Shown one piece after another: positions 1 through 21,298 of a stretch of DNA of 24,450 nucleotides. The notes below the pieces were generated by a model that was given only the letters and a program-made list of their open reading frames with translations, had not been told where the DNA came from and did no database searches. The position numbers and the translations under genes are program-made. Source of the stretch: a virus (Duplodnaviria; Heunggongvirae; Uroviricota; Caudoviricetes); IMG/VR virus record IMGVR_UViG_2534681774_000030; one strand, given 5' to 3'. Position 1 is the first letter of the stretch, and each line of letters opens with the position of its first letter.

Positions 1-1284
1 TTACTTCTTCGCCTCTGCAACCACTTTACTACCCACGCCGCGGTTATTGTATTCCCACATGCGGTTGTAGTTAGTGTCATTCAGATTGCGCTGTATTTCG
101 TCGTTATCATCTACGCTGCCGGTATTACCCGCAAACGGACGATTAGAGATCACCGCATCGGCCCACGGTTTAGCCGTGTTAAAACCTTCGTTGATGGCGC
201 TATCACGGATCACCACCTGACCGTTGGTATTGGCATCAACATCCAGCGAGCGGCCCAGTTGCGCCACACCATCACCGAAAGCATTGAAACGGCTGTTTAC
301 GGCGAGGAAACCGTAGTAAATGTTGGACAGCGTAGCCGGTGCAAACACATACGCTTCTTGCTGAGTACGTGAGTTCACCACGCGGAATTCGGTGTTATCG
401 AACACCACTGCGCCGCGACCAGAAACGATATCCACATCCCCTTCAATGTAGCTGTTGGTCACCAGCGTACGCGGCTGACGGTTGGTTTCCAGACGGTTCT
501 GCACACCGCTGTTGGTGACAAAGAAGGTGTTCTGACGACCGAGAATGTTAACGTTGTTAATCTGTACCTGGTCACCATCAGTACGCAGTGCCACCGCCGG
601 ATGGTTACCTGCATCTACGCTATCGCCCAGCGTGTTTTCGATGGTCAGATTTTGCAGTTGCAGGCCATTGTTTTGTGACCAGAAGACCGCAGAGCAGAGA
701 ACACCGATACTGTCGCTGCGTTTGCTCTGGCAGCTATCGTACATATACCACGCTGGTTTACCTGGCATATATTTGCCGCGCGGGTTGACGTCGTGACGCC
801 AGTCGGCAGGGCTCATGCCCCCATCAAGGGAAAGCCCAATCTTCACATCAATCGGTTTTTCACCTGTACCGTACAGAGTAATTCCACCCGGAGCAGCAGG
901 GACATACACCGTTCCCTGATACTCACCAGGCATCACGGCAATATACTGGCGCTTGTTAGTGCGCTTGATAATTGCCGCATCTACCGCCGCCTGAATCGTG
1001 GTATGCGTTACACCTTGAGTACCCGCCGGGCCGACAACAAAGTCAGGTTGCGCAGGCAGGGTAATCGGGGAAGGATTCCACGCTGCAGCACCTGGTGTCA
1101 GGGATGCAAAATAGTGTTGAGCATCGAAATTCTGCGCTTCTTTTGCCGACAGAATCGGGCGAGAAGAGGTACCAGGCGCGGTTTGATCAGAAGGACGTTG
1201 ATCGGGTGGTGTTGAGCTACAGGCGGTCAGCGTCACGCCAAAAGCCAATGCCAGCGCCAGACGGGAAACTGAAAATGTGTTCAC
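1..1284 (-). CDS. ybhC: YbhC, pectinesterase-family outer-membrane lipoprotein (host gene flanking lambda attB)
   Basis: 427-aa ORF with signal peptide and lipobox LTAC; sequence recognised from memory as E. coli YbhC; TAA stop at 1-3. Confidence 0.88.
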   Translation of the reverse strand: MNTFSVSRLALALAFGVTLTACSSTPPDQRPSDQTAPGTSSRPILSAKEAQNFDAQHYFASLTPGAAAWNPSPITLPAQPDFVVGPAGTQGVTHTTIQAAVDAAIIKRTNKRQYIAVMPGEYQGTVYVPAAPGGITLYGTGEKPIDVKIGLSLDGGMSPADWRHDVNPRGKYMPGKPAWYMYDSCQSKRSDSIGVLCSAVFWSQNNGLQLQNLTIENTLGDSVDAGNHPAVALRTDGDQVQINNVNILGRQNTFFVTNSGVQNRLETNRQPRTLVTNSYIEGDVDIVSGRGAVVFDNTEFRVVNSRTQQEAYVFAPATLSNIYYGFLAVNSRFNAFGDGVAQLGRSLDVDANTNGQVVIRDSAINEGFNTAKPWADAVISNRPFAGNTGSVDDNDEIQRNLNDTNYNRMWEYNNRGVGSKVVAEAKK

Positions 1285-6885: not shown

Positions 6886-7018
6886 TTTTTGGGACTCCTG
6901 GCTGATTAAGTATGTCGATAAGGCGTTTCCATCCGTCACGTAATTTACGGGTGATTCGTTCAAGTAAAGATTCGGAAGGGCAGCCAGCAACAGGCCACCC
7001 TGCAATGGCATATTGCAT
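6854..7018 (-). CDS. cIII: Lambda cIII (FtsH inhibitor)
   Basis: Manual translation [54 protein letters not shown] (54 aa); below the ORF-track length cutoff. Confidence 0.9.
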   Translation of the reverse strand: MQYAIAGWPVAGCPSESLLERITRKLRDGWKRLIDILNQPGVPKNGSNNYGYPD

Positions 7019-7090
7019 GGTGTGCTCCTTATTTATACATAACGAAAAACGCCTCGAGTGAAGCGTAATTGGTATGCGGTAACGCCGCGC

Positions 7091-8529: not shown

Positions 8530-10616
<2,087 letters not shown>

Positions 10617-14915: not shown

Positions 14916-15356
14916 ATGAAAAAACTAACCTTTGAAATTCGATCTCCAGCACATCAGCAAAACGCTATTCACGCAGTACAGCAAATCCTTCCAGACCCAA
15001 CCAAACCAATCGTAGTAACCATTCAGGAACGCAACCGCAGCTTAGACCAAAACAGGAAGCTATGGGCCTGCTTAGGTGACGTCTCTCGTCAGGTTGAATG
15101 GCATGGTCGCTGGCTGGATGCAGAAAGCTGGAAGTGTGTGTTTACCGCAGCATTAAAGCAGCAGGATGTTGTTCCTAACCTTGCCGGGAATGGCTTTGTG
15201 GTAATAGGCCAGCCAACCAGCAGGATGCGTGTAAGCGAATTTGCGGAGCTATTAGAGCTTATACAGGCATTCGGTACAGAGCGTGGCGTTAAGTGGTCAG
15301 ACGAAGCGCGACTGGCTCTCGAATGGAAAGCGCGATGGGGAGATCGGGCTGCATGA
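14916..15356 (+). CDS. ninB: NinB (Orf recombination mediator)
   Basis: 146-aa product starting MKKLTFEIRSPAHQQNAIHAVQQ..., recognised as lambda NinB; internal start within the 152-aa track ORF. Confidence 0.93.
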   Translation: MKKLTFEIRSPAHQQNAIHAVQQILPDPTKPIVVTIQERNRSLDQNRKLWACLGDVSRQVEWHGRWLDAESWKCVFTAALKQQDVVPNLAGNGFVVIGQPTSRMRVSEFAELLELIQAFGTERGVKWSDEARLALEWKARWGDRAA

Positions 15357-15880
15357 CTATCAAATCAAATACGCCAGCACACGACAAGGACTGCTGGCAA
15401 ACGCCGCTTTGGCTTTTTGATGCACTGGATATTGAGTTTGGATTCTGGCTGGATTCGGCAGCGAGCGACAAAAACGCTCTGTGCGCTCACTGGCTAACTG
15501 AGGCTGACGACGCGCTAAATTCTGAGTGGATAAGCCACGGTGCAATCTGGAATAACCCACCGTACAGCAATATCAGGCCGTGGGTGGAAAAAGCCGCTGA
15601 GCAGTGCATACAACAGCGACAGACGGTAGTGATGCTTGTGCCAGAGGATATGTCTGTCGGATGGTTCAGCAAGGCTCTGGAGAGTGTTGACGAAGTTCGT
15701 ATTATCACTGATGGACGGATTAATTTTATCGAACCATCGACAGGGCTGGAGAAGAAGGGAAACAGCAAAGGCTCCATGCTGCTGATTTGGCGACCGTTCA
15801 TTAGTCCTCGACGGATGTTTACTATCGTATCCAAAGCGGCATTGATGGCGATCGGGCAGGGCGTCAGGAGGGCGACATGA
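15353..15880 (+). CDS. Phage N6-adenine DNA methyltransferase (Dam-like, about 175 aa) at the ninC/ninD position
   Basis: Catalytic NPPY motif ([10 protein letters not shown]); start ATG overlaps the ninB stop; size and motif fit the small phage Dam-like family. Confidence 0.75.
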
Positions 15881-16059
15881 GGCGACAACGACGAAGTTTC
15901 ACCGACATCATCTGCGAAAACTGCAAATACCTTCCAACGAAACGCTCCAGAAATAAACGCAAGCCAATCCCAAAAGAATCTGACGTAAAAACCTTCAACT
16001 ACACGGCTCACCTGTGGGATATCCGGTGGCTAAGACATCGTGCGAGGAATACAAGGTGA
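15877..16059 (+). CDS. ninE: NinE
   Basis: 60-aa [30 protein letters not shown]..., recognised as lambda NinE. Confidence 0.88.
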
Positions 16060-16226
16060 TTGACCCAAATCGAAGTTACGAACAAGAAAGCGTCGAGCGG
16101 GCTTTAACGTGCGCTAATTGCGGTCAGAAGCTGCATGTGCTGGAAGTTCACGTGTGTGAGCACTGCTGTGCAGAGCTGATGAGCGATTCGAATAGCTCGA
16201 TGCACGAGGAAGAAGATGATGGCTAA
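16056..16226 (+). CDS. ninF: NinF (probable GTG start)
   Basis: [44 protein letters not shown]... matches lambda NinF; same 171-nt length as in lambda. Confidence 0.8.
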
Positions 16227-16830
16227 ACCAGCGCGAAGACGATGTAAAAACGATGAATGTCGGGAATGGTTTCACCCTGCATTCGCTAATCAGTGGTGGT
16301 GCTCTCCAGAGTGTGGAACCAAGATAGCACTCGAACGACGAAGTAAAGAACGCGAAAAAGCGGAAAAAGCAGCAGAGAAGAAACGACGACGAGAGGAGCA
16401 GAAACAGAAAGATAAACTTAAGATTCGAAAACTCGCCTTAAAGCCCCGCAGTTACTGGATTAAACAAGCCCAACAAGCCGTAAACGCCTTCATCAGAGAA
16501 AGAGACCGCGACTTACCATGTATCTCGTGCGGAACGCTCACGTCTGCTCAGTGGGATGCCGGACATTACCGGACAACTGCTGCGGCACCTCAACTCCGAT
16601 TTGATGAACGCAATATTCACAAGCAATGCGTGGTGTGCAACCAGCACAAAAGCGGAAATCTCGTTCCGTATCGCGTCGAACTGATTAGCCGCATCAGGCA
16701 GGAAGCAGTAGACGAAATCGAATCAAACCATAACCGCCATCGCTGGACTGTCGAAGAGTGCAAGGCGATCAAGGCAGAGTACCAACAGAAACTCAAAGAC
16801 CTGCGAAACAGCAGAAGTGAGGCTGCATGA
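16216..16830 (+). CDS. ninG: NinG (Rap recombination endonuclease)
   Basis: 204-aa ORF recognised as lambda NinG. Confidence 0.93.
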
Positions 16831-17492
16831 ATATCTACGAAAGAATTGATGGCAGCAAATACCGAAATATTTGGGTAGCTGGCGACCTGCACGGATGCTA
16901 CACGAACCTGATGAACAAACTGGATACGATTGGATTCGACACCAAAAAAGACCTGCTCATCTCGGTTGGCGATTTGGTTGATCGCGGTACAGAGAACGTC
17001 GAATGTCTGGAATTAATCACATTCCCCTGGTTCAGAGCTGTGCGTGGAAACCATGAGCAAATGATGATTGATGGCTTATCAGAGCGTGGAAACGTTAATC
17101 ACTGGCTGCTTAATGGCGGTGGCTGGTTCTTTAATCTCGATTACGACAAAGAGACTCTGGCTAAAGTTCTTGCCCATAAAGCAGAAGAACTTCCGTTAAT
17201 CATCGAACTGGTGAGCAAAGATAAAAAATATGTCATTTGCCACGCCGATTATCCTTGTGATAAATACGAGTTTGGAAAGCCAGTTGATCATCAGCAGGTA
17301 ATCTGGAACCGCGAACGAATCAGCAACTCACAAGACGGGATCGTGAAAGAAATCAAAGGCGCGGACACGTTCATCTTTGGTCATACGCCAGCAGTGAAAC
17401 CACTCAAATTTGCCAACCAGATGTATATCGATACTGGCGCAGTGTTCTGCGGAAACCTCACATTGATTCAGGTACAGGGAGAAGGCGCATGA
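16827..17492 (+). CDS. ninI: NinI, phage Ser/Thr protein phosphatase
   Basis: 221-aa ORF with metallophosphatase motifs GDLHG, GDLVDRG, GNHE; recognised as lambda NinI; directly follows ninG, so ninH is absent. Confidence 0.93.
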
Positions 17493-17578
17493 GACTCGAA
17501 AGCGTAGCTAAATTTCATTCGCCAAAAAGCCCGATGATGAGCGACTCACTACTGGCCACAGTTTATTGGTTTTCGTAA
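17489..17578 (+). pseudogene. Q: Lambda Q remnant: first 20 codons intact, then divergent sequence and stop after 29 codons
   Basis: [20 protein letters not shown] matches the lambda Q N-terminus, then LLATVYWFS*; ATGA overlap with ninI as in lambda. Confidence 0.8.
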
Positions 17579-17611
17579 CTGAGTCATTTTATTATTTTAT
17601 TGCAACTTTTA

Positions 17612-17662
17612 ATCTTTTATAGTGCGAAATAAATGGAGCTGGCATTCATTTCGCACTTTATG
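17612..17662 (+). terminator. Hairpin GTGCGAAAT(17 nt)ATTTCGCAC followed by TTTATGTTTTTGTT
   Basis: 9-bp perfect inverted repeat plus T-rich tract between the Q stub and the 3' end of the outer-membrane gene. Confidence 0.4.
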
Positions 17663-17703
17663 TTTTTGTTGGACTTATGTTATTTTGATTGAATTCAATT
17701 CAG

Positions 17704-18663
17704 TTAAAAAAAGAAGGTGATTGCTCCATTTATAAATGAATAGTCATCCCCTGTCTTGAATTCTGATGTTACTTTATTAAATGCTAGTGTGAAGGCTACA
17801 GGTGCATACCCAATTGTTGCGCCAACTTGATATTCATCAACAGTTTTGTTTAGCGATACTGTTGTTTGTTTCGTCTGTATTGTTTTTCCTTCGAGAGTAT
17901 AGTTGCGATTGACATCTCGTCTTTCCATACCTGCAAAAATCTTGTATTTGAATCCGCTTGTATCGGACATATGCATTAAACCACGGGGAGCCAGCAGACC
18001 AAAGCCATTATCCGAATTGAAGGTTTTATCATTACCAATGGCAATGGTTGCGCCATATGCTACATATTGAAATAAGTTTCCAGTAACAGCAGAAACTTCA
18101 GGGTATAATCCAACATTAGCACCTAAAATATCCATACTTGGTGTCATGGATAGCATCCCTTTTACAGTATAACCGTAGCGATTCTCTATTTGATCATCCC
18201 ATGCATGATATTTTTCTGCCCCAATAATCTCATGAGCTTTATTTTGTACTTTCTGACCGCCTGCGTCGGGGCCAACAACACCTATGTCAGTACCTAATCG
18301 ATAGCGAATCCAGTCATTCGCAAGGGAGTTCCATTCAATACCAGTGTGAGTGTATGCACTAAAAGCTCTGTCTCCAGTTACGGCTGTGTTGTGTCTTTTA
18401 TTACTGCCTGATGGAGAGTAAATATCTTGCGCAATATGGAGAGATAATTGGCTCGAGTCTGAGATATCGTGGCTATATCCCAGAAATAAGCCTTGTGAGT
18501 AATCATCTCTGTTTTCATGTTTATTGCCATAAATATCATTAAGTATTGGTTGAAACTTCCCTGCATCATCATTTGCTAATGATAATGCAAGGCTGTTCGC
18601 GATAGCTGAACACGTGGTAAATGACAGAGCAATAAAGACGCCAGCGATGACACTTTTTTTCAT
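17704..18663 (-). CDS. Outer-membrane beta-barrel protein (319 aa, signal peptide, C-terminal Phe); possibly LpxR-like lipid A 3'-O-deacylase
   Basis: Signal peptide MKKSVIAGVFIALSFTTCSAIA; alternating amphipathic beta-strand pattern; C-terminus ...AITFFF; the 319-aa size equals what I recall for the Salmonella LpxR precursor; AT-rich flanks. Confidence 0.6.
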   Translation of the reverse strand: MKKSVIAGVFIALSFTTCSAIANSLALSLANDDAGKFQPILNDIYGNKHENRDDYSQGLFLGYSHDISDSSQLSLHIAQDIYSPSGSNKRHNTAVTGDRAFSAYTHTGIEWNSLANDWIRYRLGTDIGVVGPDAGGQKVQNKAHEIIGAEKYHAWDDQIENRYGYTVKGMLSMTPSMDILGANVGLYPEVSAVTGNLFQYVAYGATIAIGNDKTFNSDNGFGLLAPRGLMHMSDTSGFKYKIFAGMERRDVNRNYTLEGKTIQTKQTTVSLNKTVDEYQVGATIGYAPVAFTLAFNKVTSEFKTGDDYSFINGAITFFF

Positions 18664-19138
18664 ATGTTATTGTCTTCCTTTTTTTTGAATGGTGCGCGTA
18701 TTTTACATACATGAGTTTGTAATACAAGGTGCGTAATCAATATGATGTTTTATAATTGCGTGAGACAATTGATTTATTTGTTTTTTATTGTGGTTTTTAT
18801 TATCTTTTAATGTAACGGTGTTTTTATTAAGTGTGTTTGCGTGGTGTTTTATGTTTTTTATAATTTTTATTTTATTAAATTTAAATGCATTAGTAATGGC
18901 TATTCTATATAGCAATATAAGAACTGTTACAAAAAAAGGGGGGGCAATTACAGGTAGTTATGGATGATGAGTGAAACAGATATTGGAGAACCGGGGAATG
19001 AATGATGTCTGAGTCTTATATATCAGAACTCCTTCGCTGTCGCTGGGGGCTCCTGTGCTTATGTCGTTTCCCCGATTCGGTTTTGAACGATTACCGAATG
19101 TTGAAGAATTATGCCAAAATATAGAAAGGATTTACTGC

Positions 19139-19828
19139 ATGAATACCCAATATTTACAGTATGTTCGTGAGCAACTTATGGCAGCTACTGCTGACTTGAA
19201 CGGAGCAACGAAAGGCCAGCTCGAAGCCTGGCAGGAGCATGCACAATTTGATACTGGTACATACAAACGAAAGAAGCCGCGCATTCTGGATGTGGTAACT
19301 GGCAAGATGATTACGCTGGATAATACGCCGACTTCCGGTAAGCAGTCGTACGCAAAAGGTTCATCCATTGCTTTGGTCAGCCCGGTTGAATTCTCAACCT
19401 CTTCATGGCGCCGCGCGGTTTTGTCTCTCGATGAACATCAGAAAGCATGGTTGCTTTGGTGTTACAGCGAAAGCGTTCGATGGGGGCATCAGGTCACCAT
19501 AACGCAATGGGCATGGAGCGAGTTTAAAGATTTGTTAAGTAACAGAAAAATTGCAGGTAAGACACTGGATCGCCTGAAGACGTTAATCTGGCTGGCTGCA
19601 CAGGATGTGAAGAGCGAACTTGCAGGGCGTGAGGCCTATGAATACCAGACACTGGCATCATTGGTGGGAGTGACAACAAAAAACTGGTCCGAGACATTTA
19701 CTGAACGCTGGGTTGCAATGAAGCACATTTTTCTACAGCTTGATAGTGATGCTTTATTGCTTGTGACGAGAACACGTTCAAAACAAAAGGCAGCATTTTT
19801 ACAGCAAAATATTGCAAAACTGGATTAA
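19139..19828 (+). CDS. Candidate late-gene antiterminator Q of a non-lambda (phage 82/Qin-type) family; start may be upstream at 19055
   Basis: About 230-aa ORF in the position between the nin region and the lysis genes, followed within about 50 nt by an intrinsic terminator; the family assignment rests on position and size, not on recognised sequence. Confidence 0.4.
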   Translation: MNTQYLQYVREQLMAATADLNGATKGQLEAWQEHAQFDTGTYKRKKPRILDVVTGKMITLDNTPTSGKQSYAKGSSIALVSPVEFSTSSWRRAVLSLDEHQKAWLLWCYSESVRWGHQVTITQWAWSEFKDLLSNRKIAGKTLDRLKTLIWLAAQDVKSELAGREAYEYQTLASLVGVTTKNWSETFTERWVAMKHIFLQLDSDALLLVTRTRSKQKAAFLQQNIAKLD

Positions 19829-19874
19829 AAGCCATATACTTCATGCAAATTTGGTATGTTGTAAAAAATGTATA

Positions 19875-19900
19875 AACCCGCTGCCGAGTGGGTTTTTTTT
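19875..19900 (+). terminator. Intrinsic terminator (ACCCGC-tgccg-AGTGGGT then T8); candidate tR' ending a short pR' transcript
   Basis: 7-bp stem with one G-U wobble followed by eight T residues, just downstream of the Q-like gene. Confidence 0.6.
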
Positions 19901-20039
19901 ATGCCCTGAGTTGTACTTGTACGGTAAACATGCTGGCTGCTATGTAATAGAGTTTTTTTAGCCTGTAACCTCTTGACGGCATTGAATTGCTTTTGTTATG
20001 AGTTGTAAGCCAATGTTATCATCTTGTATTGGGGTGGTT

Positions 20040-20756
20040 ATGAAGGATGGTGCGCTGCTCAGGAGTTCTTCACTTTTTATTGCCTACATGGGATGCCTTG
20101 GATGGGGGAGTGCTTATTTCTATGGATGGGGTACTTCTTTTTACTACGGCTTCCCATGGTGGATTGTAGGTGCAGGTGTTGATGATGTTGCCAGAAGTTT
20201 ATTTTTTGCAGTTATCGTCATTGCTATATTTCTTATCGGTTGGGGTATTGGTGTTGTATTCTTTTTCGCAGTGAAAAGAAAACATTCTATGCAAGAGCTA
20301 AATGTATTTCGCCTTTATTTTGCTGTGGAATTATTGTTTGTGCCGGCAATTATTGAGTTTTCTATATTGAGACAGAAGATTCAGGTACCTCTTTTGCTAC
20401 TGTCAGCAGCGATTGCGCTGGCGGTTACAATTTCGATAAGATCTTATGGGCGATTTTTATCGGTATCATGCTTCTATGATAAGCCATTTATAAAAAAACA
20501 TTTTTTTGAGATTGTGATGATTGCTTTTGTGGCATATTTTTGGCTTTTTTCATTTCTGACAGGATATTACAAACCACAGTTTAAGAAAGAATATGAAATG
20601 ATTAATTATAATGATGGTTGGTATTATGTTCTTGCTCGTTATGATAATTGTCTGGTTTTGTCTACTTCTTTCAATGCAGGTAGTAAAAGGTTTGTCATTT
20701 ATCAATCAGCACAAGATAAGAATCTTCAGGTTGATATTGTAAGGACCAGAATTTAA
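20040..20756 (+). CDS. Hypothetical polytopic membrane protein (about 238 aa) in the late-operon cargo slot between Q/tR' and nanS-p
   Basis: Start MKDGALL preceded by a GGGGTGG Shine-Dalgarno; Trp/Gly-rich N-terminus (GWGSAYFYGWGTSFYYGFPWWIVGAG) and at least four hydrophobic helices; AT-rich; unrecognised. Confidence 0.55.
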   Translation: MKDGALLRSSSLFIAYMGCLGWGSAYFYGWGTSFYYGFPWWIVGAGVDDVARSLFFAVIVIAIFLIGWGIGVVFFFAVKRKHSMQELNVFRLYFAVELLFVPAIIEFSILRQKIQVPLLLLSAAIALAVTISIRSYGRFLSVSCFYDKPFIKKHFFEIVMIAFVAYFWLFSFLTGYYKPQFKKEYEMINYNDGWYYVLARYDNCLVLSTSFNAGSKRFVIYQSAQDKNLQVDIVRTRI

Positions 20757-20889
20757 TTGGCTGCATAAATAATATTTTAAGTTGCAAGTTGGCTATTCGT
20801 AGGAATAGAACCTTAGGCATGCTGAATGCGTTTTCTGAACATTGTTTTATAAACTGTGTCTGCTTGCTGTTGTGATCCTGCTTTTAGTG

Positions 20890-21000
20890 ATGGTGATGAT
20901 GGATTTCACCAGCAGGATAATGTTGGTACTGACTGATGGCGCTCTGGTCTGCGGCATTGTGGTATTGCTGTGGCCGATGATGAAAGAACAGAATGAATAA
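20890..21000 (+). CDS. Possible small hydrophobic protein (36 aa)
   Basis: Manual translation MVMMDFTSRIMLVLTDGALVCGIVVLLWPMMKEQNE; one predicted transmembrane helix; no clear Shine-Dalgarno. Confidence 0.25.
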   Translation: MVMMDFTSRIMLVLTDGALVCGIVVLLWPMMKEQNE

Positions 21001-21185
21001 TTCTTGACTTTTTTGTTTACTGTTTATTAAAAAATCAACCGCATGGTGAATCCTCCTTGGAGGGGCTAAATGATCGAGTTTTAAGGGCACGTAGCGAGTT
21101 CTGTTTGATCATTGCAGAACTTAGCGGGAGGCGCCATGCGTACATCACTAGTGTTATTCCTTTTATCATTTTCCTTGTGAGTTCT

Positions 21186-21212
21186 GGCTGCGCATTGCGC
21201 AGCCTTTTTTTT
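21186..21212 (+). terminator. Strong intrinsic terminator (GGCTGCGC-att-GCGCAGCC then T8)
   Basis: Near-perfect GC-rich stem followed by eight T residues, about 90 nt upstream of nanS-p. Confidence 0.7.
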
Positions 21213-21298
21213 ATGACCTGCCACTGGCAGATGGTCATCCTGTGATTTGATTCCGCTTCCGGCTTTTTAACTCTGTTCCTCTACACGGGAGAAATTCG

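Follow-up and report, generated by a model that had tools for sequence, protein, structure and literature searches.

We describe here the late-control junction of a 434-type lambdoid prophage, which lies at positions 17489–19828 of the IMG/VR virus record IMGVR_UViG_2534681774_000030 (Duplodnaviria; Heunggongvirae; Uroviricota; Caudoviricetes). The whole stretch that was analyzed, 24,450 nucleotides (nt) in length, is called the window throughout. We consider it very probable that a lambda-type nin region and a phage-82-type Q block were joined at this junction with the moron lpxR between them, that the late genes are driven by a Q82-family protein, and that lpxR is read leftward in the lysogen. 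Illegitimate recombination would have joined the lambda-type nin region, broken in codon 24 of its Q gene, to a phage-82-type block of rus, ylcG, Q and PR′, of whose rus gene only the final 9 nt are kept, with a 1.4-kb AT-rich lpxR cassette between the two. The late genes would be switched on by the Q82-family protein and not by the Q stub. The lpxR gene would be a moron, a term for an additional gene that brings its own signals into a phage genome; its leftward reading would start from an AT-rich region of its own and oppose transcription from PR. In the lysogen, LpxR would act as an outer-membrane, Ca2+-dependent hydrolase that removes the 3′-acyloxyacyl group of lipid A and may thereby lower innate immune recognition.

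The left side of the junction and the cassette contain the following features.

17489–17578, plus strand: remnant of a lambda-family Q gene, a 29-codon open reading frame (ORF), identified by base-by-base comparison with Q of lambda (J02459).

17560–18992: lpxR cassette, 1,433 bp, between lambda-type and phage-82-type DNA, delimited by BLAST against lambda, phage 2B8, phage 82 and Escherichia coli Q82-type loci.

17621–17657, minus strand: perfect 15-bp hairpin directly past the lpxR stop (−19.1 kcal/mol, z −6.2).

17704–18663, minus strand: lpxR, predicted outer-membrane lipid A 3′-O-deacylase of 319 aa with a signal peptide of about 22 aa (PF09982, 3FID).

18664–18992, minus strand: lpxR upstream region, 28% GC with a minimum of 23%, containing one sigma-70-like match at 18930–18902 (minus strand); the lpxR transcript is predicted to start near 18895.

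On the left, the window follows lambda Q without a mismatch for 61 nt (17489–17549), differs from it at 17550 and 17553, is identical again at 17554–17559 and is unrelated from 17560 onward. The lambda-derived part of the stub is hence confined to nt 1–71 (17489–17559), corresponding to 24 codons of which the first 20 are perfect and 22 are identical. This match is not due to chance, because the 360 bp leading up to the break (17200–17559) are 96.4% identical to lambda (E 1e-171). Homology to all lambda-type phages in the phage collection halts exactly at 17559. The lambda-family Q protein (PF03589 type) has 207 aa in lambda; here, 71 nt are left and the frame stops after 29 codons. Judged by this comparison, 17489–17578 is a pseudogene, a dead remnant of a lambda-family Q that would no longer function. 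RefSeq labels it “antitermination protein, incomplete”, and the record of phage 434 labels it an “antiterminator-like, N-terminal fragment” of lambda Q. The initial annotation, which was made from the sequence alone, had described a lambda Q cut to a 29-codon stub that matches for 20 codons, followed by a sharp rise in AT content. Both statements stand. The alignment with lambda Q that it had proposed places the exact break at 17559/17560, and GC content falls from 49.2% at 15000–17559 to 35.7% at 17560–18992. In both intergenic parts of the cassette it is 28%, with the minimum over 200 nt (23%) at 18700–18899.

The cassette encodes a protein for which the initial annotation had noted a signal peptide, a beta-barrel character and a C-terminal FFF on the minus strand, and for which it had suggested comparison with the LpxR, PagL and OmpX families. 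The ORF at 17704–18663 was recovered as described, and its N-terminus, MKKSVIAGVFIALSFTTCSAIA, reads as signal-like. Comparison by Pfam and PDB led to LpxR, the first family proposed, and gave no match to PagL, OmpX or other barrels. The sole Pfam match is PF09982 (E 6.8e-40, 137.4 bits against a cut-off of 26), which spans residues 10–318 of 319. The sole PDB match is 3FID, the LpxR of Salmonella Typhimurium (E 3.6e-153), with 220 of 296 residues (74%) identical. This alignment runs from end to end, residues 24–319 of the query against 2–296 of the chain, so that the mature part aligns from residue 24, and the sequence predicts a 12-stranded barrel fold. Both proteins end in ITFFF. The catalytic and Ca2+-site residues are listed in mature numbering as Asn9, Asp10, Thr/Ser34, Gln118, His122 and Glu128 in PMC6863877, which cites Rutten 2009. 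All six are kept here, in precursor numbering N31, D32, S56, Q140, H144 and E150. Compared with Salmonella LpxR, the precursor has the same length and the active site is conserved, while mature residue 34 is Ser here and Thr there. In Salmonella, lpxR is chromosomal and is not known to be phage-borne. By these matches, the 319-aa protein belongs to the LpxR lipid A 3′-O-deacylases. The initial annotation had named a lack of similarity to lipid A-modifying enzymes as the outcome that would speak against its proposal; PF09982 and 3FID both provide this similarity. One might still assign the protein to another outer-membrane family, be it PagL, an OmpX/Ail/Lom-type protein or an uncharacterized barrel, and its signal peptide and C-terminal FFF are general features that would agree with this. 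Yet the sole Pfam match, LpxR, covers 309 of 319 residues, the sole PDB match is 3FID and the active site is kept, which refutes the assignment and leaves it with practically no probability.

The protein is identical to those of phage 434 and of the O157:H7 strain PV15-279 (WP_000750155.1). For the LpxR of enterohemorrhagic E. coli (EHEC), which has the identical sequence, the summary of Ogawa et al. 2018 in PMC6393859 gives 3′-O-deacylase activity and reduced phagocytosis. The activity of the window’s LpxR is hence taken over from the literature and would follow from its identity with the EHEC protein. The gene was found in 97% of 224 EHEC genomes, and LpxR has been proposed as an EHEC vaccine antigen (PMC6863877).

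To the right of the cassette, the window shows 89.5% nt identity to the phage 82 fragment X92588 from 18993 through the Q stop at 19828. The block and the late control elements behind it consist of the following.

18993–19001, plus strand: last 9 nt of rus (rusA) with its stop, GGGGAATGA, the left end of the phage-82-type block, by alignment with X92588.

19002–19124, plus strand: ylcG-like small gene that aligns with orf45 of phage 82 (NCBIfam NF033498, E 7.4e-13).

19139–19828, plus strand: Q82-family late-gene antiterminator, 229 aa (PF06323, E 1.7e-91).

19812–19840, plus strand: candidate late promoter PR′, TTGCAA-17-TATACT, which overlaps the end of Q, with an inferred start at about 19847.

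19852–19860, plus strand: extended −10-like element TGGTATGTT, spanning roughly +6 to +14 of the late RNA, as read from the sequence.

19874–19903, plus strand: intrinsic terminator tR′ with a 9-bp stem and T-run, annotated as a terminator in 434.

The Q82-family protein reaches 306.3 bits against a PF06323 cut-off of 25. It has the same length as Q of phage 82, with 203 of 229 residues (89%) identical over the full 229, and is identical to the proteins of phage 434 and O157. Of the Q-like gene that the initial annotation had placed behind the barrel protein, the end at 19828 holds; its start most likely is not the GTG of the longest ORF at 19055 but the ATG at 19139, which is preceded by AAAGGA and yields the length of phage 82 Q. 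The ylcG-like gene and the 9-nt 3′ remnant of rus are two parts that go beyond that annotation. Compared with the phage 82 module, rus is missing here and the lpxR cassette is found in its place. Q proteins form three unrelated families, Q21 (PF06530), Q-lambda (PF03589) and Q82 (PF06323) (PMC9388147). From this it follows that the junction is a replacement of one Q family by another.

Homology with other Q82-type loci, both in phages and in E. coli genomes, continues through the promoter up to 19861. At pR′ of phage 82, an extended −10-like element lies just upstream of a discriminator at +15–17, and polymerase pauses at +25/26 (PMC5001585). The element in the window agrees with it in position and in its extended −10 character, as a match in sequence only, and TGGTATGTT is thus a candidate for a sigma-70-dependent pause signal for Q loading. 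In analogy to phage 82, the Q82-family protein would load on RNA polymerase that pauses at this element, about 9–14 nt into the PR′ transcript, and the Q-loaded polymerase would then read through the terminator (19874–19895) into the late operon. As this terminator with its T-run follows PR′, transcripts made without Q should end as a leader of about 55 nt. A weak STnc240-like match on this leader (28 bits against a cut-off of 55) was treated as chance, and a permissive RNA-family scan of 17400–21400 gave no match inside 17489–19828.

The limits of the exchanged block become apparent by comparison with phage 2B8 (NC_049952), which has a lambda-type Q. Its sequence agrees with the window on the left as far as 17559 and, starting again at 19875, on the right, with 96–97.5% identity; the right-hand match has 97.5% and extends through to the sialate esterase gene. 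As 2B8 shares both flanks, the exchanged block is 17560–19874. Between the shared flanks, 2B8 has a complete lambda-family Q with its own promoter in 671 bp, whereas the window has a 2,315-bp block of stub, lpxR, ylcG and Q82-family gene. In 522 other E. coli genomes, the homologous Q82-type block starts at window positions 18988–18994 and is preceded by an intact rusA. Three joints can thus be observed, 17559/17560 (codon 24 of lambda Q/cassette), 18992/18993 (cassette/last 9 nt of rus) and a third one between 19862 and 19874 (Q82 promoter and pause region/shared terminator region). The alignments indicate that Q, its cognate promoter and the pause element moved together, as expected for Q proteins, whose action is confined to loading sites of their own. 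A late-control module swap had been suspected in the initial annotation, and the arrangement agrees with it: a lambda-family Q is reduced to a stub, and an intact Q82-family gene is present together with its own late promoter and pause element.

The same junction is found elsewhere. Positions 17300–20000 are 99.5% identical to Escherichia phage 434 (OL657226.1), genes CPT_434_63 to CPT_434_67. The order there is the same, i.e., phosphatase, N-terminal fragment of lambda Q, LpxR on the opposite strand, YlcG-like protein, Q82-like antiterminator and terminator. In the 434 record itself, the opposite-strand gene is labeled “outer membrane beta-barrel lipid A deacylase LpxR” and the antiterminator “Q82-like”, and the YlcG-like protein is annotated as well. 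Phage 434 covers 82% of the whole window, which is an integrated prophage. According to PMC9119081, the morons of phages 21 and 434 differ from those of lambda, and the 434 DNA that was sequenced came from purified virions of phage grown by lytic infection. It follows that the identical arrangement supports lytic growth, and that transcription from PR can pass over the cassette, in antisense to lpxR, and allow Q to be expressed. Prophage Sp3 of O157:H7 Sakai (CP-933K type) likewise has the same order, at 99.7% nt identity, with pphA–lpxR–Q as ECs_0813–0815 and ECs_0814 annotated as lipid A 3′-O-deacylase (lpxR). This lpxR was investigated by Ogawa et al. 2018 and put forward as a vaccine antigen (PMC6863877). 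The O157 prophages of Sp3 type are partly decayed, with IS1203 and truncated exo and O genes in PV15-279. Downstream of Q, the Sakai and PV15-279 loci both lack the sialate esterase gene that is intact in the window.

Among 5,426 complete E. coli genomes, 622 carry the lpxR cassette, 620 of them at an identity of at least 99% and nearly all in single copy. About 620 complete genomes of many serotypes carry both joints. The abrupt change in composition could also be produced by an assembly chimera or a rearrangement specific to one strain. The recurrence of the same junctions in these genomes and in 434 DNA obtained from virions (PMC9119081) refutes this explanation, to which we assign a negligible probability. 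Among phage records, the cassette is confined to 434 and 434B. At an identity of at least 99%, the Q allele was seen only in company with lpxR, namely in phage 434 and in some 11% of complete E. coli genomes, and the E. coli genome comparison revealed no intermediate form with this Q allele but without lpxR. As the Q allele was never found without lpxR, the junction seems to have arisen once, in an ancestor, and then to have been disseminated with the phage.

Further exchange and mobility were seen around the same genes. In 434B (OL657227.1, 41277–44868), the Q stub and lpxR are kept, and from inside ylcG onward the DNA is exchanged for a segment of the K-12 prophage DLP12 that brings a different Q and nmpC with the insertion sequence (IS) element IS5, an exchange described in PMC9119081. 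The annotated crossover point of 434B with DLP12 is ylcG, which therefore is a live recombination point beside the junction. A divergent lpxR allele (81% nt identity) is located on the 101-kb E. coli plasmid pJNE23-001_1 (NZ_AP045065.1, 48957–49916), among IS remnants and near a gene for an M91-family zinc metallopeptidase. Its homology to the window comprises the ORF and about 46 nt upstream only. With one allele on a plasmid and one in a prophage, at least two types of mobile element thus carry lpxR. A scan of genome contigs for lpxR yielded a single Citrobacter locus (73% aa identity) with similarity confined to the coding sequence, and neither this locus nor the plasmid allele provided a donor context for the cassette. 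At the cassette ends, a search for signs of mobile elements gave only short repeats of 10–23 nt, a size expected by chance. One 12-mer occurs near both cassette joints (17533 and 18963), with an estimated 3–4 occurrences by chance.

As to the moron character of lpxR, the gene is extra at this position in comparison with lambda, 2B8 and phage 82, none of which has lpxR there, and the GC content of the cassette is deviant. For signals of its own, one promoter-like site and one hairpin were seen, neither of them statistically compelling. The hairpin at 17621–17657 is a candidate for the 3′ end or a stabilizer of lpxR mRNA. On the plus strand it has −16.4 kcal/mol (z −2.9) with a U-rich tract after it and could serve as an additional terminator ahead of Q. 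In the 23%-GC stretch upstream of lpxR, two imperfect T-rich direct repeats of 43 nt (18770–18887, plus strand; 72% identity, 75 nt apart) may represent curved DNA, regulator-binding DNA or plain low-complexity sequence.

Regulation of lpxR is likewise known from work on EHEC. There, its activation needs Pch and Ler and it is co-transcribed with genes of the enterocyte effacement locus (LEE), according to the summary of Ogawa et al. 2018 in PMC6393859. Others place lpxR within the LEE/Ler modulon (PMC9263587) or found it strongly associated with LEE (PMC6724679), and its expression in lysogens is known from the literature (PMC9263587). We thus propose that, in EHEC, these virulence regulators would switch on the lpxR described here. 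From its base composition and the dependence on Ler, 18664–18992 is presumed to be a control region that is silenced by H-NS and relieved by Ler. The orientation of lpxR, opposite to both PR and PR′, and the literature on the Ler/Pch regulon in EHEC fit expression in the lysogen, as the initial annotation had supposed. MicF was reported to repress lpxR in Salmonella (PMC7534054). In the window, the lpxR mRNA contains AAUGAUGAU at 18555–18580 (minus strand, codons ~30–35), which is complementary to the MicF 5′ end. As a candidate interaction, pairing of MicF with lpxR mRNA was not significant, because the best duplex (−15.6 kcal/mol at codons 30–48) was matched by 58 of 300 shuffles.

Alternatively, lpxR might be a decaying or silent passenger without a role, trapped at a recombination scar. 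It does lie between two truncated genes with a weak predicted promoter and terminator, and in a K-12 host without Ler and Pch it may be silent. But the ORF is intact with its catalytic residues in place. The protein of 434, which according to its record came from a Paris sewer in the 1950s, and that of modern O157:H7 are both identical to it, and the cassette is at least 99% identical in 620 genomes. Moreover, activity, Ler/Pch control and reduced phagocytosis are given in PMC6393859, and the association with LEE in PMC6724679. A mere passenger is thus very improbable. Equally small is the likelihood that lpxR is expressed in the lytic program instead of the lysogen, for example for envelope remodeling at lysis or as a block to superinfection. 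The gene does lie inside the path from early to late transcription, but on the strand opposite to PR and PR′, so that phage transcripts are antisense to it, and according to the EHEC data it belongs to the Ler regulon and is expressed along with LEE (PMC9263587, PMC6393859).

A more speculative view starts from the position of lpxR, which is head-on to PR and has the nin genes on one side and the sole functional Q on the other. The gene could be wired into the lysis–lysogeny circuit, which we regard as rather unlikely. In this case, leaky rightward transcription might be kept away from Q by transcription of lpxR, or by H-NS on the 28%-GC DNA, in combination with the hairpin at 17621–17657. Such buffering of Q would stabilize lysogeny, and after induction N-modified transcription from PR would silence lpxR. 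If this were true, lysogens of classical 434 would, as a corollary, undergo lipid A conversion once lpxR is de-repressed.

Several observations weigh against the proposed joining of a nin region and a Q block with a leftward-read moron between them. Positions +15–17 of the late transcript read GTA here, not GCC as in phage 82. The comparison with phage 82 extends only as far as the Q stop, where the fragment X92588 terminates. Promoter-like sites in 17300–21400 do not exceed the number in shuffled sequences (9 versus 11.6 expected), and the hairpin past lpxR has no U-tract on the minus strand, from which lpxR is read. Furthermore, no intermediate was found, and the moron may have preceded the swap or followed it, or both may have arisen in a single event.

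The junction is embedded in a lambda-like, 434-type lambdoid prophage that is integrated at the lambda attachment site beside ybhC, with phage homology beginning at 1331. On its left, three genes mark this setting.

1–1284, minus strand: ybhC-type pectinesterase-family gene flanking the lambda attachment site.

1419–2489: lambda-type integrase.

16827–17492, plus strand: ninI/pphA, which encodes a Ser/Thr phosphatase (Pfam Metallophos, E 3.4e-16) and is the last of the lambda-type nin genes that are intact.

After the integrase, the early and nin genes comprise those for replication proteins O and P, ren, ninB, a Dam methylase and ninE/F/G, followed by the NinI phosphatase. The ninI stop overlaps the Q start (ATGA), which is typical of ninI–Q, and the encoded protein is annotated as a phosphatase in phage 434 and O157:H7 Sakai. 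At the gathering threshold, an Rfam scan of the window had the lambda cIII thermoregulator as its sole match, and no tRNA was found. This RNA element (6973–7031, minus strand) is matched over its full length with 88.5 bits and is an expected lambda feature. The early region is interrupted by an IS21-family element (8729–10530, minus strand) encoding an IstA-like protein of 340 aa and IstB of 260 aa (PF01695, E 7.7e-112). In a related strain, FDAARGOS_1059, IS100 is located between cro and cII, oriented the other way and at a site different from that of the IS21-family element in the window.

Downstream of the junction, the first ORF past the late terminator encodes a 252-aa multi-pass membrane protein (19998–20756, plus strand) that matched no Pfam or NCBIfam family, followed by a 52-aa DUF3927 (TciB-like) protein (20842–21000, plus strand). 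This part is also AT-rich, with 39% GC at 19875–21298. Stx phages carry stx at the position just past the late terminator. Directly upstream of the sialate esterase gene lies an STnc100-like small RNA (21011–21215, plus strand; RF02076, E 9e-07, 41.4 bits against a gathering threshold of 47). Its end is formed by a strong terminator (21186–21204), and its position matches that of PasD. In phage 2B8, pasD is found directly upstream of the esterase gene, and Q and LpxR genes lie within 10 kb of >98% of PasD1/PasD2 matches (bioRxiv 2026, 10.64898/2026.05.13.724894). The esterase gene itself (21299–23152, plus strand) encodes a 617-aa protein of sialate O-acetylesterase type with DUF1737, SASA and DUF6645 and is located upstream of the holin and lysozyme genes.

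In every part, the locus is of a known kind and near-identical to annotated records (434, Sakai Sp3), and in this respect it is ordinary. The additions made here are modest, namely the exact mapping of the three joints and the observation that this Q allele was only seen linked to lpxR. The locus is a clean example of lambdoid mosaicism, in which a non-homologous but functionally equivalent Q/PR′ module has been exchanged as a unit. At its joint sits a virulence-associated moron, and the medical relevance of the locus derives from LpxR, which would lower immune stimulation by lipid A.

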